From positions 1 to 12,894 of IMG/VR virus record IMGVR_UViG_2565956617_000006: a stretch of DNA of 12,894 nt. One strand, 5' to 3'. This DNA is from a virus. Lineage: Duplodnaviria > Heunggongvirae > Uroviricota > Caudoviricetes. Below are positions 1-12,894 of the stretch, one piece after another. Below the pieces are notes generated by a model. That model was given only the letters and a program-made list of their open reading frames with translations. It ran no database searches and was not told the DNA's origin. How positions within the stretch are numbered: the stretch's first letter is position 1; each line of letters opens with the position of its first letter. A program made the position numbers and the translations under genes.

Positions 1-477
1 ATGAAACTCATCAGTAACGATCTGCGCGATGGCGATAAATTGCCGCATCGTCATGTCTTTAACGGCATGGGTTACGATGGCGATAATATTTCACCGCATC
101 TGGCGTGGGATGATGTTCCTGCGGGAACGAAAAGTTTTGTTGTCACCTGCTACGACCCGGATGCGCCAACCGGCTCCGGCTGGTGGCACTGGGTAGTTGT
201 TAACTTACCCGCTGATACCCGCGTATTACCGCAAGGGTTTGGCTCTGGTCTGGTAGCAATGCCAGACGGCGTTTTGCAGACGCGTACCGACTTTGGTAAA
301 ACCGGGTACGATGGCGCAGCACCGCCGAAAGGCGAAACTCATCGCTACATTTTTACCGTTCACGCGCTGGATATAGAACGTATTGATGTCGATGAAGGTG
401 CCAGCGGCGCGATGGTCGGGTTTAACGTTCATTTCCACTCTCTGGCAAGCGCCTCGATTACTGCGATGTTTAGTTAA
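1..477 (+). CDS. ybhB: YbhB, PEBP/UPF0098-family (Raf-kinase-inhibitor-like) cytoplasmic protein; host chromosomal gene on the bio side of lambda attB
   Basis: 158-aa ORF starting exactly at window position 1 (MKLISNDLRDGDKLPHRHVFNG...), with the PEBP-type D-P-D-x-P...H signature (CYDPDAPTGSGWWHW); recognised from memory as E. coli YbhB. It lies directly beside a sequence matching the lambda attB B-prime arm, as expected for ybhB. Coordinates include the TAA stop. Confidence 0.85.
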   Translation: MKLISNDLRDGDKLPHRHVFNGMGYDGDNISPHLAWDDVPAGTKSFVVTCYDPDAPTGSGWWHWVVVNLPADTRVLPQGFGSGLVAMPDGVLQTRTDFGKTGYDGAAPPKGETHRYIFTVHALDIERIDVDEGASGAMVGFNVHFHSLASASITAMFS

Positions 478-485
478 TCACTCTG

Positions 486-508
486 CCAGATGGCGCAATG
501 CCATCTGG
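486..508 (+). terminator. Hairpin just downstream of ybhB (CCAGATGGC-GCAAT-GCCATCTGG); possible terminator or RNA-stability element
   Basis: Perfect 9-bp inverted repeat with a 5-nt loop, starting 9 nt after the ybhB stop. There is no U-tract immediately 3-prime, so an intrinsic-terminator role is uncertain. Confidence 0.3.
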
Positions 509-567
509 TATCACTTAAAGGTATTAAAAACAACTTTTTGTCTTTTTACCTTCCCGTTTCGCTCAAG

Positions 568-725
568 TTAGTATAAAAAAGTTGAATGCGAAACGGTAAA
601 AACCATTAATATCAACGTTTTATAATTGATTCAGTCTAAAAAATAGACTGCATAATGATACAAAACACAACATATCCAGTCACTATGAATCAACCACTTA
701 GATGGTCTTAGTGACCTGTAACAGA
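568..725. other. Prophage attachment site attR (P-O-B-prime) of lambda type: core at ~568-582, phage P arm with Int arm-type sites at 583-~725
   Basis: The reverse complement of 555-582 reads CTTTTTTATACTAACTTGAGCGAAACGG, i.e. the lambda core (GCTTTTTTATACTAA) joined to the attB B-prime arm (CTTGAGCGAAACGGGAAGG) as I recall them. The other side (583-725, reverse complement ...CTGTTACAGGTCACTAAGACCATCTAAGTGGTTGATTCATAGTGACTGG...) resembles the lambda attP P arm, including two inverted arm-type Int sites (GGTCACTAAG at ~707-719 and CCAGTCACTATG at 676-687). The comparison is from memory, not an alignment. Confidence 0.75.
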
Positions 726-728
726 GCA

Positions 729-770
729 TTAGCGCAAGGTGATTTTTTTGTCTTCTTGCGCTAATTTTTT
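729..770 (+). terminator. sib/tI-like hairpin terminator (lambda int retroregulation element) at the b-region side of att
   Basis: Perfect 10-bp inverted repeat TTAGCGCAAG (729-738) / CTTGCGCTAA (755-764) with a 16-nt loop, followed immediately by TTTTTT (765-770). Position (~150-200 bp from the core on the P-arm side) and orientation (transcription arriving across att from the int side) match lambda sib/tI, and the sequence resembles the lambda tI hairpin as I recall it. Confidence 0.55.
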
Positions 771-1084
771 GTCAACACACTGGGTTAGCTGAATTTACAA
801 CCACGCTCAGTATCTCGATAAGCGCAGAGAAATGATGCAGTGGTGGGCGGACTGGATTGATGAAAAGGTGGAGTGATCCGCCTTAACCATTATCGAAGAG
901 CACAAAGCCTTGCAATCCAGTGCAATGCTTTGTGTATACCTATTTTCCCAAATTTGTTTCAGTAATATGTCGATCTCCAATTATTAGAATGGTACACTAA
1001 ACAACGTGCGCAATTACAATAATGTAGCGTATAAAAAAACAAAAGCTAATTATATTTTTTAAATAAACATAGTGAACTAAATAT

Positions 1085-2071
1085 ATGAGAAATTATAGCA
1101 TAGATACTATGAGGTTTGTAGCGTGCTTTTTTATAATAGCTGTTCATATAGGTGGGTACCCGCAACAAGGAGAATTATTTACAGAGGTATTTAGAGGTGT
1201 ATCGCGATGGGCTGTGCCATTCTTCTTCCTGGTTACAGGATATTTTTTATCATGCCAAAACAAAAGAAAACTACTATTAAGACTTACTAGGATAACATAT
1301 ATAACACTAATATTTAGCGTACTGTTCTTTATTTTTCAACTAACTTTGAACTATAAAGATGGATATTCATTAATTATAAGCATCATAGATCCATTTATTT
1401 TTATCGGTGGGTCTTATTTCCATTTGTGGTTCTTGCCTTCAATCTTAATAGGTATGATTTCAGTAAGTTACATGATAGAAAATGTTTCAGAAAATTTTGG
1501 AATCTCTTTAAGTATACTTATTATATTTATAATGTGGTGCGTTGATTTCTTTGGTACTGCCTACTTCTCACATGATATATATGAATCAACAAGAACTATT
1601 CTATCAATACCAACAATATATATAGGGTATTACTTATACACTAAGAAAGACATAATTATAAAATCTAACGGGAATTTATTGATTTTATGTATGCTAGCTT
1701 CCGTGGTTTTTTCCGTGATTGAGATTCTAATATACAAATCAATATATGGTTCACTTGCCAATATAAGAGAACTACCTTTATTTTCTGTTATTACTGCTAT
1801 AATAATACTAATGTTATCTATAAGATCACAAAGCACAAAAGAGACTGTTCTATCAAGGATAGGAAGAGATGATTCTATCGTCATATATCTTATTCACCCA
1901 CTATTTATAGTTTTAATATCAAAGGTGTTTAGGGTTGCTCATGAATATAACGGGATGGCTATTCTTGTGATTACATTTATTGTAAGCATTTCGTTTTCAT
2001 TGTTTGTCAAGAGTAAATTTCCTTCAATATATTCATTTCTTACTGGCGGTTTTATAAAAGAAACAAAATAA
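1085..2071 (+). CDS. Acyltransferase-3 family integral membrane protein; putative O-antigen O-acetyltransferase (Oac-like lysogenic-conversion moron)
   Basis: 328-aa ORF, very hydrophobic with roughly 10 predicted membrane spans and the N-terminal acyltransferase-3 R-x10-H motif (RFVACFFIIAVH). Coding sequence is strikingly AT-rich compared with the adjacent structural genes. It sits between attR and the tailspike, as oac does in Shigella phage Sf6. ATG at 1085 has only a weak SD; an internal ATG at 1109 is an alternative start. Confidence 0.8.
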   Translation: MRNYSIDTMRFVACFFIIAVHIGGYPQQGELFTEVFRGVSRWAVPFFFLVTGYFLSCQNKRKLLLRLTRITYITLIFSVLFFIFQLTLNYKDGYSLIISIIDPFIFIGGSYFHLWFLPSILIGMISVSYMIENVSENFGISLSILIIFIMWCVDFFGTAYFSHDIYESTRTILSIPTIYIGYYLYTKKDIIIKSNGNLLILCMLASVVFSVIEILIYKSIYGSLANIRELPLFSVITAIIILMLSIRSQSTKETVLSRIGRDDSIVIYLIHPLFIVLISKVFRVAHEYNGMAILVITFIVSISFSLFVKSKFPSIYSFLTGGFIKETK

Positions 2072-2128: not shown

Positions 2129-4027
2129 TTACATGTCATTTTCTGAATTATAAATAAGTACAACCTGACCTGAATACGTTGCTTGTGATGACCACCCTGT
2201 ATCCATATTGTATGGCCTGATCCTTACTTGGCTTGAACTAATTAATCTAGCTTTTATAAGCCATGTATCATCGTTTGTGTTTGCTGCTACCTCCTGAATT
2301 GATACTGTATTTGCTGGCTGGAATTGATCTGGTATTGCTCTTGTTACAACCCTTGACGATCCAGATACTGTTAGTGTGAAAAACTCCCTACCCGATGTTG
2401 ATATAGATTGGCAACCTTCAGAAAAGTTGTTTCTTATATCTGGTCTGGATGATCTTCCTTCTGCTATGGTCTTCATGCGAATAACGCTAAGTGGCATTAC
2501 AGTTCCCGTTGTATTACGGAATCTGCAACCTGTTATCTTAACCTGAAACGGATTTGATATAAGATTTATTGCAACTCCATGTTCAGGTACTAACCAGTTG
2601 CATGAGCTAACAGTAAATCTCGCACCGTCTGAGTTTGATTCAATTAAGCATCCATCGAAATAGCATCCAACAAAAATATCTGCGTTAGACATTATAACCA
2701 CACGCCCTTTTGCGCTATCAGCAGACTGATTTGGATAAAAATGACTATTACTAAAAGAATTTGCTCCTTTACGTAAATACATAACATCTGCATACTGTGA
2801 ACCAATAACTAAGTCTGAGAAGTTATTATCATAGTTGTTGATATCCAAGCCAACGCCATCTGTAACGTTAGTTGGGTAAGAAGCATTCCAATCTGGTTGT
2901 TGAAATATAAACGTTTTTCCCACATTTAATTCATGTGGCTGTGAGTCATTAGGTTCAGTCTTTAATCCATAACGCAAGTATCTTGTCAGTAGACCTCCCA
3001 ATATAGTCACTTTCAAAAAGTCATCATAAACCCTAATTGCGCCGGAAGCTTTCCAGTTAGCATCGATATTAGGATTAAATACCACGATGTTTTCAATTGG
3101 TCTAGAGCCGTTAACTTTACGAAAATCTAGAACAGGTTCTGTAGAAGGAAATGCTCCAATTGCTAAAAGAGATGGATTCAACATAGAAAAATTCAAACAA
3201 TCTGTTATTGTAAATGGACGTGATACATAGTAAGTGCCCTGAGTCATATCAAAAACAGTGCCACCCAAATTGTACATGTTTGGATCTTCTCTATCAGTTG
3301 AGTAAGTTGTTTTGCGATTTCTCTTGATTATACTATCTCTCCACAAATCCAGTGCATCAGAGCTGTCGAATGTTGAATCGCATGGTTTTGCTCCGTAATT
3401 TCTTGGGTCATCTACTGAATACCCAGAAAGAAATCCAACACACACCCATGTTGAGTCTGGAGTGGAGCCTGGCGTAACTATATAACCATCAATTGGTATA
3501 TTTCCTATATATGAATAATACATTCCATCTGAATATTTGAATGATTCGTATTTATTTAATATCACTCCGCCAACTGACATATCTCCAGATTTTTTGTATA
3601 CATATGGCATGTAATCGCTATAAACATTACCACCATATGTGCTCCCGACAATCTTATCTCCATTGTTTGATGAAATATCAACTCGCAACTGATCAGGATC
3701 ATACTTCAGTAAATTAGGAAAATAGAACTGCTGCACACCATATGCATCATAAACAGCCATAGAGTGGCCTTGCACAGTTACGAACTTGGCAATCTGTCCG
3801 TTATATACAGGGTAACCAGCAGCGTTAATGATGATTGGTTGCGAAACAGGAACGTGAGAGCCGTCTTCGTTCTCCACATAAACCTGAATCTGGTTTTCAG
3901 GGTTTTCCGGGTCAGTGTCAATTTTACCGATATAAATTTTGCCATTGGCTACGGCTTTAAAAGAACGAGCCATAGTGAAGAGTTGCGAAGGCATGCTTAC
4001 CACAACATTTGCGGTGATATCTGACAT
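2129..4027 (-). CDS. Tailspike protein: P22-type N-terminal head-binding domain plus divergent C-terminal receptor-binding/depolymerase region
   Basis: Translation from the ATG at 4027 gives [59 protein letters not shown]...[15 protein letters not shown]...LKYDPDQ, closely matching the P22 gp9 head-binding domain ([13 protein letters not shown]...) as recalled. SD GGAG lies 7 nt upstream of this ATG. The ORF-track start at 4075 adds 16 residues with no homology and is rejected. The remaining ~520 aa are AT-rich, rich in G/S/T/N/Y/D, and do not match the P22 gp9 body. Confidence 0.88.
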
Positions 4028-4052
4028 TTCATTGCTCCAGACGAATGATATG

Positions 4053-4075
4053 ATGCAATCATGATGTGATTGCAT
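4053..4075. promoter_or_regulatory. Candidate operator: inverted repeat ATGCAATCA-N5-TGATTGCAT in the divergent mnt/tailspike intergenic region
   Basis: Perfect 9-bp arms separated by 5 bp, 26 bp upstream of the tailspike ATG and ~75 bp upstream of the Mnt-like start. Size and symmetry fit a site for a tetrameric RHH repressor. No convincing sigma-70 -35/-10 pair could be assigned by eye. Confidence 0.4.
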
Positions 4076-4148
4076 ACCGAAATGGTACTATTGAGTATTT
4101 ATCCAGTAGGTTACGATGCCATTCCACCCAACTGGTGAGGCATCAAGG

Positions 4149-4409
4149 ATGTACAGCAAATACGACGAGGCGCAGTTTCACTTGAGACTTCCGCATGAAC
4201 TCCACGCGAAAATTAAACAGCGCGCGAAGATGAATAACAGGTCGCTGAACTCAGAGATAATTGCAGCGATTGAAGAATCATTGGCTAAACAAAGCTCTGC
4301 ATCAGTTTACATTGACGATGCAGAGCGTATGGCAGAACAACAATCTGATATGGTTAAGAAAATTGTCTTTGATACGCTCAAGGAGCTATATAAAAAAGAC
4401 AGCAACTAA
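4149..4409 (+). CDS. mnt: Mnt-like ribbon-helix-helix (Arc/MetJ superfamily) repressor
   Basis: Clear similarity to P22 Mnt as recalled: QFHLRLPHELHAKIKQRAKMNNRSLNSEIIAAIEESL versus HFNFRMPMEVREKLKFRAEANGRSMNSELLQIVQDAL, and DDAERMAEQQSDMVKKIVFDTLKELYKK versus NDAERLADEQSELVKKMVFDTLKDLYKK. Start chosen at ATG 4149 (86 aa, GAGG SD 8 nt upstream); the ORF track's ATG at 4116 (97 aa) is an alternative. Orientation is opposite to the late genes, as for P22 mnt. Confidence 0.8.
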   Translation: MYSKYDEAQFHLRLPHELHAKIKQRAKMNNRSLNSEIIAAIEESLAKQSSASVYIDDAERMAEQQSDMVKKIVFDTLKELYKKDSN

Positions 4410-4429: not shown

Positions 4430-4507
4430 ATGCAAAGAGATATGATGAATATTACATTCTACATATTTGGTTTTTGCACTTTCCTGGTGTTTGCAAAGCT
4501 ATTCTGA
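4430..4507 (+). CDS. Hypothetical 25-aa hydrophobic micro-protein (MQRDMMNITFYIFGFCTFLVFAKLF)
   Basis: ORF found by eye, below the ORF-track size cutoff. GGAGG (4421-4425) lies 4 nt upstream of the ATG. It starts 20 nt after the mnt stop and overlaps the 3-prime end of the convergent gp16-like gene by 9 nt. The residue run ITFYIFGFCTFLVF could form a single membrane span. It may be spurious. Confidence 0.25.
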   Translation: MQRDMMNITFYIFGFCTFLVFAKLF

Positions 4508-6496
4508 CAACGCATCAGACTTAGCCCCCTGCGTCATAGCGTTAATTGCCTTTTGTGCCTGCTGCATGGCTTTCTCAAACGCTGTTGATCCGCGTGGGGT
4601 GTTTGCCATTCGGAGCATTGCATTTCTGAATGGCTCGCTCTCATAGGCGCGAGTGAGAAGTCCGTAGCTTACTGCTGCGCCAGTTGTCGCCGGGTTCATT
4701 GCCGTCCCATACCCAATAATGAACGGGATAGTTTGCTGCCCTGTGGGTGTTGTTACTGCCGCTTTTGCAGCCTGCTGCGTGGATTGCAGGTAGTTTTTCA
4801 ATCCTTTCAGATAAGCGGCTTCCTGACCTTTAAATGTGATGCCAGTCTGGTTTTGCAGGATGTTAAGCTGCCGAAGGAACTGGTCAGGGGAACCACCTGA
4901 TTTCTCCATCGCCTTTCCAATGATGCCATTGCGCATTTGCGCCCTGCCAACACGACCAACTGAGTTATACAGAGTCTTAATTTCCGATTTGTTCTTGCTG
5001 AATAGCATGTTGTTGACAACTTCCGGCGTAAGATCGCCTTTCATGAGAACATTCTTCAGCCTGGTATTCTTTAGTTTCGCCGCTTCGTCAGCGTAAACGG
5101 CATTGGCCTGCTGATATTTACGGAGAGTATCGCTGCCAAGATTCTGACCAATGGCACCATTGATATCGTCGGTCATTGCCTTGTAAACTCGCTGAATGGC
5201 AGCATCGGAACGGTTTGGTAATACCGGTCGCTCACCCTTCACGTCCATTCTGAACTGGCTGCGCAGGTCGCTTAATTGCTTCAAATCCAGATTTACCGGA
5301 CCATCAGGGCCAGCATTGCGAACAAGCTCATCACGATATGACTGAAGTTTTGAAATTGTCTCGTTATCAGCTACCTTACCAAGCTTCTGCAGATTAGATA
5401 TCTCAGTATCAATCTGCTGAATTGCTCGCGCAGGCTGAATGTTTACTCCAGCCATAGCATTCTGAACCTGCTCCAGTCGATTACCGGCGGCACGACGAAT
5501 TCCTGATGTTTTCGTTTTAAGGCTGCCAATAACAACCGCTGGATCATACTCGCCGAATTTATCAGCAAATCTCTGCACCAACTGACTTCTCGCTTCCTGT
5601 TGCGTTGCTCTCATTCCGCTTGTGCCAGCCAGGGGAATATTTTCTGCTGTAGTCTGCGCCATTTTCCCGACGCGGGAAGTAGGCTGTAACAGGTCTGTGG
5701 TGTGCAGAGGCACTCCTTCACGCTCTGCAAATCTGATAGCTTGCTGCGCTTCTGGTGCAATAGCACCACGAACGCCACGATAAGCAGCGCCTAATCCACG
5801 TCCGGCAGCGTTAATAGCGCCGCCAGCCAGAACGCCAACGCCTAAATCGGTGGCGAGTGCTTCCGCATCATCTTTCGCACTATTTGCAGCAAGTGATCCA
5901 ACTGCGTTTTCAGCGAGAAGGCGAGTTGCCCCCTGAGCAATTCGACCAGCAAGTGTTGGTGCCTGTGCTGCCGCTCTCTCAACGCCAGCAGGAGTGAGGT
6001 AAGGCAATGCTTCAGCAAATACCCTTCCCTCTGTCGTTTGTGGAGTCAGCGCGCCTTGCTGAAAGCCAAAGTCCTGCTCTAATCCCTGCGTTGTTACTCG
6101 TGGCGCTGGTTGATATGTACCATCGCCAATACCGAGTTTACCGCCAGCCCAAGCCGCCGCGCTTGTTACAGCATCGGCAACTGATGCAGGTATGTTTGCC
6201 ACGTTCACGCCAGCCTGCACCAGTCCGCGACCTGTCTCTTTTACTGCTTCACCAAGATCAGACATAAATCCACTTTGCTGTGGTTGTTGCTGTGCTACTG
6301 GTTGTTGTGTCTCCACTGGCTGCACAGATGGCAATGGATAGGCAGCATAGAAAGCTTGCTTAGCCTGCTCTGCATTTTCTCCGGCTTGCGGGGCCACGAC
6401 TTCATTGAAGTATTGCTCCTGAGCCTGCGCTTTTTGTTCTGGTGCTAACGCCTGATACTGTGGAGAGGCGATAACATCTTTCCATGCTTTAGCCAT
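4499..6496 (-). CDS. Ejection (internal virion, E) protein, P22 gp16-like
   Basis: 665-aa Ala/Gln/Gly-rich ORF, last gene of the ejection-protein trio before the tailspike/immI region, as in P22 gene order 7-20-16. Its ATG overlaps the upstream gene's stop (TAATG). Assignment is by synteny and composition. Confidence 0.65.
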   Translation of the reverse strand: MAKAWKDVIASPQYQALAPEQKAQAQEQYFNEVVAPQAGENAEQAKQAFYAAYPLPSVQPVETQQPVAQQQPQQSGFMSDLGEAVKETGRGLVQAGVNVANIPASVADAVTSAAAWAGGKLGIGDGTYQPAPRVTTQGLEQDFGFQQGALTPQTTEGRVFAEALPYLTPAGVERAAAQAPTLAGRIAQGATRLLAENAVGSLAANSAKDDAEALATDLGVGVLAGGAINAAGRGLGAAYRGVRGAIAPEAQQAIRFAEREGVPLHTTDLLQPTSRVGKMAQTTAENIPLAGTSGMRATQQEARSQLVQRFADKFGEYDPAVVIGSLKTKTSGIRRAAGNRLEQVQNAMAGVNIQPARAIQQIDTEISNLQKLGKVADNETISKLQSYRDELVRNAGPDGPVNLDLKQLSDLRSQFRMDVKGERPVLPNRSDAAIQRVYKAMTDDINGAIGQNLGSDTLRKYQQANAVYADEAAKLKNTRLKNVLMKGDLTPEVVNNMLFSKNKSEIKTLYNSVGRVGRAQMRNGIIGKAMEKSGGSPDQFLRQLNILQNQTGITFKGQEAAYLKGLKNYLQSTQQAAKAAVTTPTGQQTIPFIIGYGTAMNPATTGAAVSYGLLTRAYESEPFRNAMLRMANTPRGSTAFEKAMQQAQKAINAMTQGAKSDALSE

Positions 6497-7884
6497 TAAT
6501 CACCCCATAGTGAAGAAAAGTTACTGCTGGCTGCTGGCTGTGATACCTGTGCAGGTTGAGATTGCTTCCGCTGAGATTTACCAACATTAACGTTATATTG
6601 TTGGTTGTAATTGTTGGTGTATTCCTGAATTTCACGAATCGACTGCTGCATAGCCTCCGGGCTTGAATAGTCAACCTGCGGCATCCCCTGAAAATACATC
6701 TTCGCTTCTGCAACGGTGTTAATACCACTGGCACCCATGTCCCTTGCTGCCGCCACGCCCTGATTCTGCATTCTTCCCTGAATACGTTGTGCTGAGTTAT
6801 ATAACTGGCGCTGCTCTTTTCCTGTTAATCGGCTGCGAACATCAGCACCAATTGCCGGGTTACCTGCACCGCCGGTCATTCCTGTCATGAAATCGAGAGC
6901 AGAAGCGTCTGCATTTGCGATCGCGTCGATATCCTTCTTCATGGCATAGTTTTGTGCTGATGCAGACGATGTTGCAGGCGCTGCGATTGAACTGGCAGGA
7001 ACGCGAACCATATTCCCCTCGTTGTCGATGCCTTCGTAGAACGCATTAGCCCCAGCGCCGTGAAGCTTCCCGCCTACCGTTACAGTTCTGCCATCTGATA
7101 ACTGAACTGTACGCTCGTCATTCCCAGCGGTTCCTCTTGTTGACGCTCGCTGCATTGCCAAATCCTGCCCGCGTCGCGCAGTAGAAGCAGATAAATCCTG
7201 ACCGCGCATCGTGATGTTTTGACCTCGTGCTGTTAGCGCCTCTCCGGCCTGATTGCTGCGGATTGTCTCTGCCAGTCTGCCTCTGTCAATCTCACGACCA
7301 GCCATCTTGTCCTGAACATTGAAGTAATCAATCGGACCAAGAGCAGCCATTCCGAGGTGATCAACAAACTCGCCAAATCCTGAAGGATTCTGCTGATACA
7401 TCTGAGCAACGTTGTTAGGGTCAACGCCGACGCGCGCCAGTTCCTTGGCGTTGTTTTGCAGCCATGATTGCATTGCTTCTGGAGACGATGACGCAAGGCG
7501 TGCGCCAGCCGCTAAGGTGCCGATAGAATTACGCTGGTCTTCATCAATGAATCCCATGCCTTTACGAACGGATTCAATCTGGTCTGGATATTGAGTAGCC
7601 AACTGACGCAAAGCACCGCGATCACCAGACGCATAAGCATTAGCGTACGCCTGCTGAAATTCTTTCTGCCGCTGAGCCTGCTTTTCCTGCTGAAGCACCC
7701 CTGCAATACCTGAAAGGCCTTGCAAAGCAGTCAGCCCAACATTGTTAGCGCCTGAACGCTCAATATCATTGTTCTGCCTGATAAGCTGAAGCGTATTGCC
7801 GATGTCATTTACGCTCGGAGCGTTTGAGTTGACGCCGCCGATACCAGCCAACAATCCGCCGTTTGTTCCTTGCCAAGTAGCCAT
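6496..7884 (-). CDS. Ejection (internal virion, E) protein, P22 gp20-like
   Basis: 462-aa ORF between the gp7-like and gp16-like genes (P22 gp20 is of similar size), coupled to the downstream gene by a TAATG overlap. Assignment is by synteny. Confidence 0.65.
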
Positions 7885-7893
7885 GATTACCCC

Positions 7894-8586
7894 TTAAAAC
7901 AACGAGCCAAGCAGGCCAAGTCCGCCGCCAATTGCCGCACCTAATCCAGTGCCAAGTCCTGGAACAATAGAGCCAAGAGCAGCGCCAGTCATAGCCCCTG
8001 AAGCTCCGCCGCTAATTGCTGTCTGAAGACCTGATGGTTTATTGGCATTAGCAGCGGCAAGAGCCGCACTTTGCTGCGAAATCTGACTCATGTTGTTGGC
8101 ATATGTCTGCCCGGCGTTTGCCTGACCTTGCAGTGCGCCAAGACCAATATTTGCCAGATTCTGGTAGTTGTTCATCTGACCAGACAGCCACTGCTGACCA
8201 AGCGTTGGTGCGATTGTTGCTAACTGATTACCGGTTGCAGTGGAACCCAATCCACCTGTTGCTTCCGCTGCCGCCAGACTCTGATAGCGAGCCTGACCAG
8301 CAAGATCTTTGTACTGCTGAGAGTTGTAATACTGGTTAAGTGCCTGACCTTGCCCCTGAAGAGAGGAAAGATTCTGCAATTGTGATACGTACTGCTGAGC
8401 GAGTGGCGTGAACGGAGCAAGGTTTTTCATGATCGTCTGCCACTGCTGATTCTGCAGGTCTGCGGCATACTTCTGAGCTTCTGCTGCATACTTTGCGCTT
8501 TTATCGGACCCACCTTTCCCGCCTTTTTCAGGGCAATAAGGTTCCTCTCCGCGCAGTTTTCTGCCCAGCTTAAATGCATATAACAT
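7894..8586 (-). CDS. Ejection (internal virion, E) protein, P22 gp7-like
   Basis: 230-aa ORF beginning MLYAFKLGRKLRGEEP..., Gln/Ala-rich centre and a Gly-rich hydrophobic C-terminus (GLGTGLGAAIGGGLGLLGSLF). Size and position match P22 gp7. A GGGAG SD precedes the ATG. Confidence 0.7.
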   Translation of the reverse strand: MLYAFKLGRKLRGEEPYCPEKGGKGGSDKSAKYAAEAQKYAADLQNQQWQTIMKNLAPFTPLAQQYVSQLQNLSSLQGQGQALNQYYNSQQYKDLAGQARYQSLAAAEATGGLGSTATGNQLATIAPTLGQQWLSGQMNNYQNLANIGLGALQGQANAGQTYANNMSQISQQSAALAAANANKPSGLQTAISGGASGAMTGAALGSIVPGLGTGLGAAIGGGLGLLGSLF

Positions 8587-8588
8587 GG

Positions 8589-9044
8589 CTATCTCCCGTG
8601 ATTCAGGAAGTCGATTAGTTCTTCGCGTGTAGCACTGTAAAATGTCACGTCATCCACGCCTTTGAAGTATTTCTTGATGGTTCCGACACGCTTAAGGCCA
8701 ATCATTGCGCAGTACATCTGCCCGTGGCGGAATTTGCGCGCAGCGAACGATGTGACGCACTGAACGGTGGTGTTAGTCAGAATGTATCGCCAGAACGCCA
8801 GCCCAATTTCCTTGCTGAAGCCGCGAATCTCTGGCAGGTACATGGCGTGGCAATCGAATGTCAGCGGCTGAATCTCCTGATAGTAAACAATGCCGCCGAA
8901 CTGACCGTACACGTTCACCTCAAAGTAACGGCATTCAGGCTTGTAGTCGTATCCATCACCATTGTTGCTTCCGGCAATAATGTCAGGGTGATTTCCGACT
9001 GCTTCGATCAGGTCGATATTTCGCGTTGGTTTGAACTGAATCAT
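8589..9044 (-). CDS. P22 gp14-like protein (position-based assignment)
   Basis: 151-aa ORF between the tail needle and the gp7-like gene, the slot of P22 gene 14. Start taken at the ATG at 9044, which overlaps the needle TGA stop (TGATG); the ORF track begins one codon earlier at a GTG (9047). Confidence 0.5.
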   Translation of the reverse strand: MIQFKPTRNIDLIEAVGNHPDIIAGSNNGDGYDYKPECRYFEVNVYGQFGGIVYYQEIQPLTFDCHAMYLPEIRGFSKEIGLAFWRYILTNTTVQCVTSFAARKFRHGQMYCAMIGLKRVGTIKKYFKGVDDVTFYSATREELIDFLNHGR

Positions 9045-9892
9045 CACTGCTCCGCAATGATTTTGATGGTTGTGGCATTAAACGCCGCACCATTCGACTG
9101 AATGGTTAACGTACTGCCATTTGTGGCAAGAAATCCGTCTTTATCCACGCTGAAGAATGTAGCTAACAGGATGTTGTCGGTTGTTGTCGCCGCATTACGA
9201 CTGCTGACCAGCGTATCAGGAACAGAGCCGGAAAAGGTTAGCTGCATTGACCTGTTGGCGGTTCCGCTGGGCCACGTCCCGACAATCGACATCTTGAAGA
9301 ACAGGGTTTTGTTCTCGTTGAACACAACCATCTTGTTGTTAACGGTGTCGAAGAATGGTGCCAACGAGCCGGATGACGGCGTGAGCGTTTTCAGCAGGCT
9401 AACAAGGTTGGTCGGCGCTGTCGGGATGGTTACAGATACGCCAGAGTAAACAACCTCTGACTTTTTGCGAGTAGTGGCATACTCCAGAGCATCAATGCGC
9501 GTTTCATGGTCTGAAAGCGTGTTTTGAATGGCGATAACTTCATCAGTCAGATAATCAATATCGTTTTCTGCTGTCGTTAATCGGGAATCAAGGCCGACTA
9601 TCGCCGATTCTGCGTTAGTGATCCTTGTTTCGTGGTCCTGAATCTTCGCTTCAGCTGATGCCAGTCGAATTTCGTGATCGACCAGAATCACATCCTGCTC
9701 ATCGTTCCTGACCTGTGCATCATAAGCGCCCTGTCCGGCCTCGTTGGCCTTGTTAGCCACGTTACCAACATCAGTGCCCTGTGCGATAACGTAAAGCAGA
9801 TACGACTGCGAGAAGATATTGCGTGGAAGGACTGATGTGTCGAGCCGTGTGGCCTGAATGATTACCGGCACATTGAGATTCGAATCAGCCAT
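9044..9892 (-). CDS. Tail needle (P22 gp26-like) with an extra C-terminal knob domain
   Basis: N-terminus [68 protein letters not shown] matches P22 gp26 as recalled. It is followed by heptad-like repeats ([30 protein letters not shown]...[10 protein letters not shown]) and then ~110 aa of beta-rich sequence that P22 gp26 lacks, as in Sf6-type knobbed needles. Confidence 0.8.
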
Positions 9893-11310
9893 TACTCAAT
9901 CCTTATCTGGCAGCCTGACAGAGTGACAGGTGACTTCGTGATAACGCGCAATTTGAAACCGACATTTTTCCTGATGCGCCCTACTCGCTTCCACAAAACG
10001 CGTTTGTCGTAAACGAACGGTTCATTCTGCTCAATCATCTGCTCACGCCCGTAATTGATGCCGTCAGTGGTTGCAGAGAGGAACAGGCGGTCAGCGTACT
10101 GCGCAACGCCAGTTGAAGATTCAACCTCAAGGTCGAACACCCGGGCGTTATCCGCTTTGAACAACGGAGTAAACAGCAGGTGTTCCTGCTGCTTGTCGTA
10201 CTGGCTGCTGATATCGAACTGCAATTTCCCGGTCACGGATTCCAGCTTATCGCCGCACGTTATCTGATTGCCTTCGTAAATGAAGTCGATAGCGCGGTAC
10301 ACATCGTCATACAAGCCAGTTTTCAACACACACCATTGCGGACCATTGGCGCTTGAAGATGCGTCGTACACGAGAACATGGCGCGGAAGGTGGATAATCA
10401 GCAACTCATGAGCATCAAATCGCAGAGACTCCATCACACCCTCAGCCAGTTCATCAGCAGTGTAGGAGCGGAGAATTTTCTCAATGCTCGCGCTGGCGAT
10501 TGGTGATACCTGACCGGAGCCGATGATGTATACAGACGGCGCACCTGTTGCCGGATTGCTGATGAACGCATAGGAATCAGCGAATGGAGTTTTACAGTAG
10601 GTTCCGGCAATACCTTTCTGCACCATCAGCGATGGCTGTGCAACATACAAAGCGGCACCAACGGTGGTTGCGCCAGTAAGGGAGAAATATTCAATAGTCG
10701 ATGAACCAAAGCAGACGATGAAGTCTCGCCATGTGCCGATGCCGATGATGCCGTCAGGCTGCGATTCTGCGCGATATTGTGCGCTGTATCGGTCAGGATG
10801 TGATTCGTCTTCAAGGTCAGTGATAAACCATGAATCAGTGCCGTCTTTTGACCACGCATAACGCCCACGTAAGCGCGTAATGTCGCGAACTGAACCTAAC
10901 TCGTACTGTGTGAATCCGCTGTCTGTAGGCCAGTTTGAGACGGTTTTAACCGTGCCATCATAGCGATACTCGACCAGTTGACCATTAACGCCTATTGCCT
11001 GTGATGTCCTACCGTGTGCCATTGATACGCGACCACTTCCGGCGACGTCACCGACTTCGCTTTCGCCTTTGTAGAGCTTGCCACCACACACGCGATAAAC
11101 AGCATTCCGCGCCATGTTGTACTCGACGCCGCGCGATACGCCGTTTACATCAGAGCGTTTGGCAATGCCCGGGAATGAGCGAAGATATCCGCTGCTGTTC
11201 AGGATTTCTTTGGGTGTAGCCAACATATTCACTGGCAGATAGTCGATATAGTCGGCGTTTCGAAAGTCTTTGCCGACACCTTTCATAAGCGGAAGTTGCT
11301 GAATAGGCAT
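9892..11310 (-). CDS. Head-completion / tail-accessory protein, P22 gp10-like
   Basis: 472-aa ORF, the same length as P22 gp10 as recalled, in the gp4-gp10-gp26 order. AGGTGA SD upstream; TAATG coupling to the needle gene. Confidence 0.75.
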
Positions 11311-11318
11311 TTATTCAC

Positions 11319-11801
11319 CTATGCGTTTGGGATATCGCCATCAATCAGAGGGAGATCGCGTGGATAATATCGGTCAGATGTGAACACGTCATATTTATTA
11401 CCCTGTCCTACAGGAAAATCTCCACGTCGTCGTATTGAAGGAACAACCAGAGTGTCGGTCATCAAGGCATCATATGAGCGTTGGGCGTTACTGAGAACTT
11501 GCGGAGTTGGTTCAAGGCTGTAATCAGATAGCATTCTCAGCAATAACTGATAGCCTACTGCGTGTTTGTATTTTCTTGGAAGACCTGACTCATCATCTGG
11601 TAATGGCTGCTCATCTCCAGTTGCGAAAGCGTAACCAATGTCGCCGGGGTTAATCATCCACTCGGACATCATATCTTCCAGATCAATTACACCATCTTCA
11701 ATTGATTGCGGCTCAACATCAGTCAGCGATGCATTAGAAGCAATAGCAAACTTACGAAGCGCAAAAAGGACGATCTCACCCTTTGTCAGTACTGTTGCCA
11801 T
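11319..11801 (-). CDS. Head-completion / tail-accessory protein, P22 gp4-like
   Basis: 160-aa ORF; its N-terminal region ([35 protein letters not shown]) resembles P22 gp4 ([35 protein letters not shown]) as recalled. Lies immediately upstream of the gp10-like gene. Confidence 0.75.
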   Translation of the reverse strand: [160 protein letters not shown]

Positions 11802-12003: not shown

Positions 12004-12894
12004 TTACGGATTACCGAAGAACTGACCGCCCATGTGAGGGTTAAAGCACACATATGCAGGCAGTAAGTCGAAGCGCATTTTTTGCACGTTGGCATCGCCA
12101 TCTGCGTATTTATGTACGCGGATGGAGAAACCTTCATATGTTGCAACAGCAGAATCAATACTGTGCAGTTTCGGCAGTGGGATAGAGCCAAGTCCACAGA
12201 AGAACTTGTTATAGAACAGGTTTGGCTTCATTGTCTGGCTAGCAGTGCCTACTACAGATACGGCATCGCCTGCCGCTACCTGACGACTTACAGAGTTGTA
12301 CTGCGGGTTTGTAGTGTCATAAATCGGAACACCAGAAAGCGTAACCGTCACATCGCCACCGCTGTCTGAATTAGCATCAGCAGTAACCGTTGCAGTGAAG
12401 CTAATTGGTGTGGCTCCGTTATACAACGCCTGTTTGGTCTGCTGTTGCAGCCAGTAGGTATTGGTGAATTTGACCTGATCACCAGCTTTCAGAAAACCTG
12501 TAACGCTGGCTGTCGCTCCGGTCAATGTTACAGTGAACTGGTATGAGTCTTTAACTGCGTTATAGGTAACAGTTGGCTGTGTTTTGACTGTCAGTGTTCC
12601 GCCAAATGCCCCCTGCGTACGAGAGGCAAGCCCATTAGACATCAGTGCGCGAATGCCGCCAAAATTGGTTGGGATCTGCGCATTCTCCCATGCAGTACGA
12701 ACCAATTGATCTGAAGCGTGCAAACCAGTCTGCGCATCAGCAAGTCGCTGTGCAGACCATGGATCCATTACAGCATAGTTTTCACCTTCATTAACGCCGA
12801 GATCTTTCAGGAAAGATGCCGTCTGCGCAACATCAGACCATTTGGTGATTGGAGTATTGGGGCTACCAAGTGACAACGCACCGTTATTCATCAT
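12004..12894 (-). CDS. Major capsid (coat) protein, C-terminal ~296 aa; 5-prime end lies beyond the window
   Basis: ORF runs off the right edge of the window. It occupies the slot just upstream of gp4, where gene 5 (coat) sits in P22-like phages, and is followed by tandem stops and a strong terminator, typical of a highly expressed capsid gene. Assignment is by synteny; I could not confirm sequence identity to P22 gp5 from memory. Confidence 0.6.
   Translation of the reverse strand: MMNNGALSLGSPNTPITKWSDVAQTASFLKDLGVNEGENYAVMDPWSAQRLADAQTGLHASDQLVRTAWENAQIPTNFGGIRALMSNGLASRTQGAFGGTLTVKTQPTVTYNAVKDSYQFTVTLTGATASVTGFLKAGDQVKFTNTYWLQQQTKQALYNGATPISFTATVTADANSDSGGDVTVTLSGVPIYDTTNPQYNSVSRQVAAGDAVSVVGTASQTMKPNLFYNKFFCGLGSIPLPKLHSIDSAVATYEGFSIRVHKYADGDANVQKMRFDLLPAYVCFNPHMGGQFFGNP

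Follow-up and report, generated by a model that had tools for sequence, protein, structure and literature searches.

The stretch of DNA analysed here (hereafter the window; 12,894 nucleotides) joins an Escherichia coli gene, ybhB, to virion genes of the P22 type, and the question raised by this locus is how such a module came to lie at the attachment site of phage lambda and whether an intact prophage stands there today. In lambda, integration is carried out by the integrase Int bound to arm-type and core-type sites, with DNA bending by IHF and strand exchange within a short overlap, and generates two hybrid sites, POB' and BOP', while for excision Int and IHF have to be joined by Xis and Fis. 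The answer is hence to be sought in the anatomy of the junction, in the genes that follow it and at the far end of the element, for which complete E. coli genomes carrying the same DNA are available.

On the host side, the window begins with an intact ybhB gene (positions 1-477, plus strand), whose 158-aa product (WP_000767389.1) belongs to the PEBP family and is described as a 'kinase inhibitor'. Indeed, it matches the Pfam family PBP (5.8e-42) as well as the NCBIfam equivalog PRK10257 (343.5 bits for a cut-off of 226), and ybhB is annotated in every RefSeq genome matching the window. The following positions, 478-567, are host intergenic DNA of the B' side of attB, including a ybhB-distal palindrome at about 483-509. 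Compared with K-12 MG1655, in which the site between ybhB and ybhC is empty, positions 466-581 are 100% identical, so that the arm beside ybhB equals the chromosomal attB flank, and the alignment diverges right after the core. This 15-bp common core of the lambda att site occupies positions 568-582 on the minus strand (reverse complement, ACTTTTTTATACTAA) and shares 14 of its 15 bases with lambda 27,724-27,738, the 7-bp overlap TTTATAC being intact at the host/phage junction. Its sole mismatch to lambda concerns the outermost base, at position 582 (G to A on the lambda top strand), outside the overlap. By this change, the predicted C core-type Int-binding site found by motif scan (576-584, minus strand), which reads CAGCTTTTT in lambda, becomes CAACTTTTT, a perfect match to CAACTTNNT, which we take, from lambda att biology, to be the consensus of core-type Int sites. 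At the attL of the same genome, the core carries the lambda/K-12 base, unlike position 582 of attR.

Beyond the core, a P arm of the lambda/434 type occupies positions 583-778. It is identical to lambda 27,530-27,723 at 164 of 194 positions (85%), and phage 434 has the closest P arm (89%), blastn of the region giving E values of 1e-59 against lambda and 2e-133 against 434. Positions 565-747 align to lambda without a gap, with the two arm-type Int sites at lambda spacing: P1 (704-723, minus strand) and P2 (672-691, plus strand, with CAGTCACTAT at 677-686) each match 19 of 20 bases of the lambda features 'int 1' (27,583-27,602) and 'int 2' (27,615-27,634), respectively. Accessory sites are likewise predicted from the sequence. 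Scanning for the IHF consensus WATCAANNNNTTR gave matches on the plus strand at the lambda H1 position (688-700, AATCAACCACTTA) and at the H2 position (610-622, TATCAACGTTTTA), and two Xis-type repeats lie on the minus strand, TATGTTGTGTTTT at 662-674, exactly as in lambda, and TATGCAGTCTATT at 642-654, with two changes from lambda; these are presumably X1 and X2, an assignment that we draw from our knowledge of lambda attP. Over 583-650, identity to lambda falls to about 71% (52/73), so that an action of H2, X2 and Fis exactly as in lambda is an assumption on our part.

The P arm ends in the sib/tI hairpin, followed by a T-run (727-768, plus strand), which is identical to lambda 27,530-27,582 at 51 of 53 positions and folds at -22.7 kcal/mol (z = -5.1); the homologous stretch of HK022 carries the annotation 'sib transcription processing site'. 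In the circular phage, sib/tI lies downstream of int, for which it serves as retroregulator and terminator, while integration parts the two and leaves sib/tI at attR. A simple terminator scan of positions 440-1120 returned no terminator because its 8-nt loop limit is shorter than the sib/tI loop, and folding shows this hairpin and a second one, at 899-935, to be strongly stable. Searching the whole window against Rfam at gathering thresholds gave no match, neither sib nor a sar-like RNA being covered here by a curated family. Positions 478-770 are thus confirmed as a lambda-type attR (P-O-B', read here as B'-O-P) beside an intact ybhB.

Regarding the genes that follow, the first is an acyltransferase-3 family membrane protein gene (1085-2071, plus strand; about 29% GC), located in the slot for O-antigen conversion. 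Its matches to Pfam Acyl_transf_3 (9.4e-28) and to the O-acetyltransferase family PHROG 3333 (2.9e-10) suggest a putative O-acetyltransferase moron; they are weak profile matches and the only ones obtained, tblastn against 50,697 phage records having given no match at E<=1e-5. At this junction, the gene is present in five of the 5,426 complete E. coli genomes. It is followed by a tailspike gene on the minus strand (2129-4075), encoding a P22 head-binding N-terminal domain (Pfam Head_binding, 5.6e-66) and a divergent receptor-binding part, of which the C-terminal 499 aa (2132-3628) reach 70% identity with Escherichia phage P762 and no more than 54% with all others. This receptor-binding part is rare among sequenced phages, the PHROG matches being confined to the N-terminal head-binding domain. 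The longest open reading frame starts with the ATG at 4075, the PGAP annotation at 4027; the same holds for the next gene, which starts at 4116 or, according to PGAP, at 4149. The latter (4116-4409, plus strand) encodes a repressor of the Mnt/Arc family (Pfam Arc, 1e-14; Repressor_Mnt, 3.3e-14), a remnant of immI.

All remaining virion genes lie on the minus strand. The ejection block (4499-8586) comprises gp16-like (4499-6496), gp20-like (6496-7884) and gp7 (7894-8586) ejection proteins and is supported by matches to the DNA transfer protein PHROG 770 (4.7e-238), Pfam Inj_translocase (6.6e-77) and, for gp7, Pfam P22_gp7 (1.6e-129). It is followed by a gp14-like DUF2824 gene (8589-9047; Pfam DUF2824), a tail needle of the Sf6 type (9044-9892; Pfam Phage_tail_NK, 3.3e-107), gp10 (9892-11310; Pfam Phage_stabilise, 5.4e-301), the gp4 adaptor (11319-11801; PHROG 637) and the 3' part of a P22-type major capsid gene (12004-12894; PHROG 283, 6.1e-77). 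A P22-like (Lederbergvirus) virion module is hence present, with tailspike, gp4, gp10, gp26 needle, gp7/gp20/gp16 and coat all matched by Pfam or PHROG.

With these data, much of what the initial annotation had proposed is borne out. It had placed at 568-582 the junction of a host B' arm to a P arm retaining both arm-type Int sites and the core; it had described a P22/Sf6-type virion module, for which the families listed above, from Head_binding to coat, are now in evidence; and it had suggested site-specific integration beside an intact ybhB, with which the clean junctions and the perfect reconstruction of the empty site, described below, agree. Moreover, positions 583-725 do align to the lambda P arm, the flanking gene is ybhB, and the other end of the element lies at ybhC and not at a tRNA gene.

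This other end could be located since the whole window is 100% identical to the genomes of E. coli Ec40743 and PM22; JNE170426 is nearly identical to it, and shorter versions occur in 23-AB02114 and LR-51. In Ec40743, ybhB and attR are followed by the acyltransferase, the virion genes, a coat gene devoid of its N-terminus, the insertion sequence ISEc52 (1,245 bp), an int stump of 570 bp and ybhC, and PM22 shows the same succession of truncated coat, ISEc52, truncated int and ybhC. In the genomes matching the window, the coat gene is cut by ISEc52 at the window-equivalent position 13,161 and is annotated by PGAP as a pseudogene 'missing N-terminus'. The int stump encodes the C-terminal part of the enzyme, identical to residues 168-356 of lambda Int at 186 of 189 positions. 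Its stop codon is followed by a P' arm that does not differ from lambda where the two align, by the core and by a B arm that equals K-12 as far as ybhC, which makes an attL (B-O-P') next to this gene. In the locus numbered L002, this second core lies at 35,050-35,064, at a distance of 14,482 bp from the first. The flanks of attR and attL together rebuild the B-O-B' site of K-12 perfectly.

The prediction that attL and a lambda-specificity int/xis would be found next to ybhC was therefore right as to the attL, which is perfect, and as to the specificity of the int gene; the latter is truncated and xis is absent. Indeed, ISEc52 abuts the int stump, and only residues 168-356 of Int are encoded in Ec40743, PM22 and LR-51, JNE170426 and 23-AB02114 having an int fragment of 711 bp. 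Everything from the N-terminus of the coat to codon 167 of int has been lost in Ec40743 and PM22, including scaffold, portal and terminase, and portal and scaffold are kept only in JNE170426. Between the two cores of L002, there are no genes for repressor/immunity, replication, lysis or packaging. The assertion that the element is not a decayed remnant is contradicted by this 189-aa stump at ISEc52, by the loss of xis and by the coat-to-int deletion, and it fares no better in the other carriers.

A search of 5,426 complete E. coli genomes yielded five carriers of this acyltransferase variant (Ec40743, PM22, JNE170426, 23-AB02114 and LR-51), from strains of China, Cuba, Japan, Germany and Ecuador, and all five are remnants truncated at ISEc52. 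In each of them, the same 1,245-bp ISEc52 (33,160-34,408 in L002; also L007, L008, L011 and L012) has truncated virion genes on one side and the int fragment on the other. The endpoints differ. On the virion side, the deletion ends next to the portal gene in JNE170426, in coat in Ec40743 and PM22, in gp10 in 23-AB02114 and in the needle gene in LR-51; on the int side, the 711-bp fragment is found in JNE170426 and 23-AB02114 and the 570-bp fragment in Ec40743, PM22 and LR-51. There are thus four virion-side and two int-side endpoints, and no target-site duplication was found around ISEc52 in any of the five. Such a pattern is what successive IS-adjacent deletions would be expected to leave, the order of events being the part that we infer, and the five carriers can be regarded as a natural series of ISEc52-adjacent nested deletions. 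In addition, the DUF2824 gene has an internal stop in JNE170426 (L008, 14,589-15,044) and in 23-AB02114 (L011, 9,134-9,589), while the copy of the window is open; these stops show that point-mutational decay has occurred besides deletions. The acyltransferase-tailspike-ejection block is retained in five of five carriers. Given the 100% identity of the window to two of these genomes and the remnant state of every carrier among the 5,426, the element in the window is in all likelihood itself a cryptic, IS-eroded remnant of about 14.5 kb.

Taken together, we regard it as highly probable that positions 478-770 are the attR of a Lederbergvirus-type prophage that was integrated by a lambda-type Int at attB-lambda, between ybhC and ybhB, and whose lineage was later reduced to about 14.5 kb by ISEc52-associated deletion. 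By analogy with the lambda paradigm, the Int of this phage, 99% identical to that of lambda, would have bridged the arm-type sites (P1, P2 and P'1-3) and the core sites with the help of IHF, and strand exchange inside the overlap TTTATAC would have kept the host DNA intact as far as the core, with the P arm following it. Later on, a deletion associated with ISEc52 would have removed about 27 kb, which extended from the N-terminus of the coat to codon 167 of int and included portal, terminase, lysis, replication, immunity and xis. What is left between two intact att sites is about 14.5 kb encoding the putative O-antigen acyltransferase, the tailspike, Mnt, the ejection proteins, the needle, gp10 and gp4. 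Because neither Xis nor the arm-binding and core-binding domains of Int are encoded, this element should be unable to excise by itself. Its att sites are probably fossils, which could be used only if a phage of lambda specificity provided Int and Xis in trans.

Could the window instead derive from an intact and inducible hybrid prophage, combining P22/Sf6 virion genes with a complete lambda int/xis at attB-lambda? Such prophages exist in other strains, among them JNE131328, which has int, xis and all modules, the isolated phages JEP4 and Huey share the architecture, and the attR junction of the window is clean. Yet Ec40743 and PM22, with their 100% identity over the window, as well as the three other carriers of this acyltransferase and tailspike, are ISEc52 remnants with an int stump and without xis, repressor, replication, lysis or terminase genes, which makes an intact prophage in this very lineage very improbable.

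A further feature is a block located exactly where the int-attP cassette gives way to the variable cargo. This block starts with the fossil 3' end of an integrase gene of the argW-type intS family (793-876, plus strand; 84 nt, 27 codons and a stop), called a pseudogene by PGAP, whose peptide IYNHAQYLDKRREMMQWWADWIDEKVE is identical at 25 of 27 residues to residues 359-385 of IntS from the P22-like prophage of strain B7A at tRNA-Arg (argW). It ends with the second hairpin (899-935, plus strand; -19.1 kcal/mol, z = -5.1), which alignments reveal in lambda (27,474-27,509), 434, JEP4 and Gally, and which in B7A lies directly downstream of the full-length intS. The fragment and the hairpin occur together in 434, JEP4 and Gally, while lambda keeps only the hairpin. 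Over the entire block of about 140 bp (793-935), identity is at least 90% between the full-length intS phage of B7A, 434, JEP4, Gally and the element in the window. The intS fragment is the fossil of an older exchange between integration cassettes of the IntS type and of the lambda type. The contexts in which the block is found are diverse: the siphovirus 434, P22-like phages both at attB-lambda (JEP4 and the element in the window) and at the HK022 site (Gally) and, in argW phages, the true 3' end of intS. It is conceivable, although we consider it rather doubtful, that the block is a conserved boundary or "linker" and not just debris, through which homologous recombination could swap the integration specificity of lambdoid phages (argW, lambda and HK022 sites) with the virion and O-antigen-conversion modules being kept. 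If so, and this is speculative, it would offer a homology patch for further swaps of integration cassettes.

The position and conservation of this block would also suit an assembly in situ, in which a P22-like phage of the argW type (IntS) recombined through 793-935 with a resident lambda/434-type prophage or remnant at attB-lambda, so that the virion module would never have come in with a finished hybrid integrated by Int. Free phages of the finished hybrid design are known, namely JEP4, Huey and phiHS3, against which background Int-mediated integration of an existing hybrid is sufficient and simpler, and we give assembly in situ little credence; the window itself holds nothing that tells the two routes apart. 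As for a mere chance match within an AT-rich region (38% GC) without any att site, it is excluded by the blastn scores against lambda and 434, the 19 of 20 matches of P1 and P2, the core, the attL 14.5 kb away and the empty site that the flanks rebuild perfectly.

The integration of a hybrid prophage followed by its erosion has several consequences. Rather than as an intact prophage, the locus should be annotated as a cryptic remnant of about 14.5 kb bounded by the attR of positions 568-582 and by the attL next to ybhC. In these strains, phages of lambda specificity and integration tools based on lambda att are deprived of an intact attB because the site is occupied. Moreover, the acyltransferase-tailspike-ejection block kept by all five carriers is a candidate for O-antigen modification.

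In natural E. coli, attB-lambda is used by P22-like podoviruses besides lambda-like siphoviruses, which was already visible in JEP4, Huey, dozens of RefSeq genomes and one experimental report. A P arm of the 434 type with its flanking block lies next to ybhB in 592 of 5,426 complete E. coli genomes, and with a query combining 12 kb of bio-side host DNA and the virion module, at least 60 complete genomes have P22-type virion genes contiguous with bio-ybhB (60 of 60 among the matches listed, a lower bound). That lambdoid phages, P22-like ones included, exchange their integration modules in a mosaic fashion is well established. The hybrid of a P22-like phage with lambda int/attP at ybhC/ybhB is common and already documented; hence the initial annotation was correct about the architecture of the hybrid and overstated its implied novelty. 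A 2024 paper in mBio on lambda prophages does not mention P22-like occupants.

An intact relative of the element is the P22-like prophage of about 40 kb in strain JNE131328 (NZ_AP027212, 853.5-893.9 kb), which lies between ybhC and ybhB with the same attR and the same 'intS fossil. It encodes a 356-aa Int identical to that of lambda at 352 positions (99%), xis and the full P22-like gene set, and its ejection, needle, gp10, gp4 and coat genes are about 95% identical to those of the window; it differs by gtrABC in place of the acyltransferase, by another tailspike and by the absence of an IS. Among isolated P22-like podoviruses, JEP4 (MT740315, Lederbergvirus) and Huey (PQ850609), the latter from the BASEL study (PMC11990801), have in common with the window element the order int (lambda-type, 1071 bp), P'OP, sib, 'intS, hairpin, cargo and tailspike. 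In both of them, int-xis-attP-sib adjoins the tailspike, and the Int of JEP4 is identical to lambda Int at 353 of 356 residues. Unlike the window element, they are complete and viable phages with other tailspikes, and between attP and tailspike, JEP4 has a small ORF and Huey a UmuD-like gene where the window has the acyltransferase. Likened here by its published description, phiHS3, a temperate P22-like phage of E. coli HS, was located upstream of ybhC by whole-genome sequencing of lysogens, and attB/attL PCR as well as SOS-inducible excision have been reported for it in the same 2026 preprint (bioRxiv 10.64898/2026.05.19.726188); unlike the window element, it is an active phage. In addition, the GenBank 'phage' record vB_EcoP-720R6 (ON470605; L014, 1-3,418), classified as Lederbergvirus, includes host DNA with bioF, bioB, bioA and ybhB on the far side of attR, and represents either prophage-derived sequence with its host flank or packaged host DNA.

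P22-like virion modules are also found with other integration systems. Gally, a P22-like prophage of E. coli LF82 (PMC9928086), associates such a module with an Int cassette of the lambda family and shares with the window the part of the P arm that begins near position 637, together with sib, the 'intS fossil and the hairpin, but its core and integration site are of the HK022 type, beside torT. At its junction (L006, 3,700-4,210), the HK022 attP/sib region is matched at 89.5%, making this a second lambda-family cassette joined to a P22-like virion module. Phages of the P22/Sf6/CUS-3/Kapi1 type located at tRNA genes (thrW, argW), such as the one of B7A with IntS, possess the same virion module; they differ by another member of the integrase family, by an attB at tRNA-Arg or tRNA-Thr and by an int gene located towards the tailspike and oriented away from the att site. 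Finally, lambda itself, whose Int-Xis-IHF system acts on an attB between gal and bio, uses the same ybhC/ybhB site, with a nearly identical core, the same sib/tI hairpin, the same P-arm order (P1-H1-P2-X1-X2-H2-C), an identical P' arm and an Int that is 98-99% identical. The window element departs from it by a P arm closer to that of 434, by the 84-nt intS fossil inserted between sib and the next hairpin and by its truncated int and lost xis, and where lambda has its b region and J-side tail genes, the attR of the window adjoins a tailspike/O-antigen module of the P22 type.
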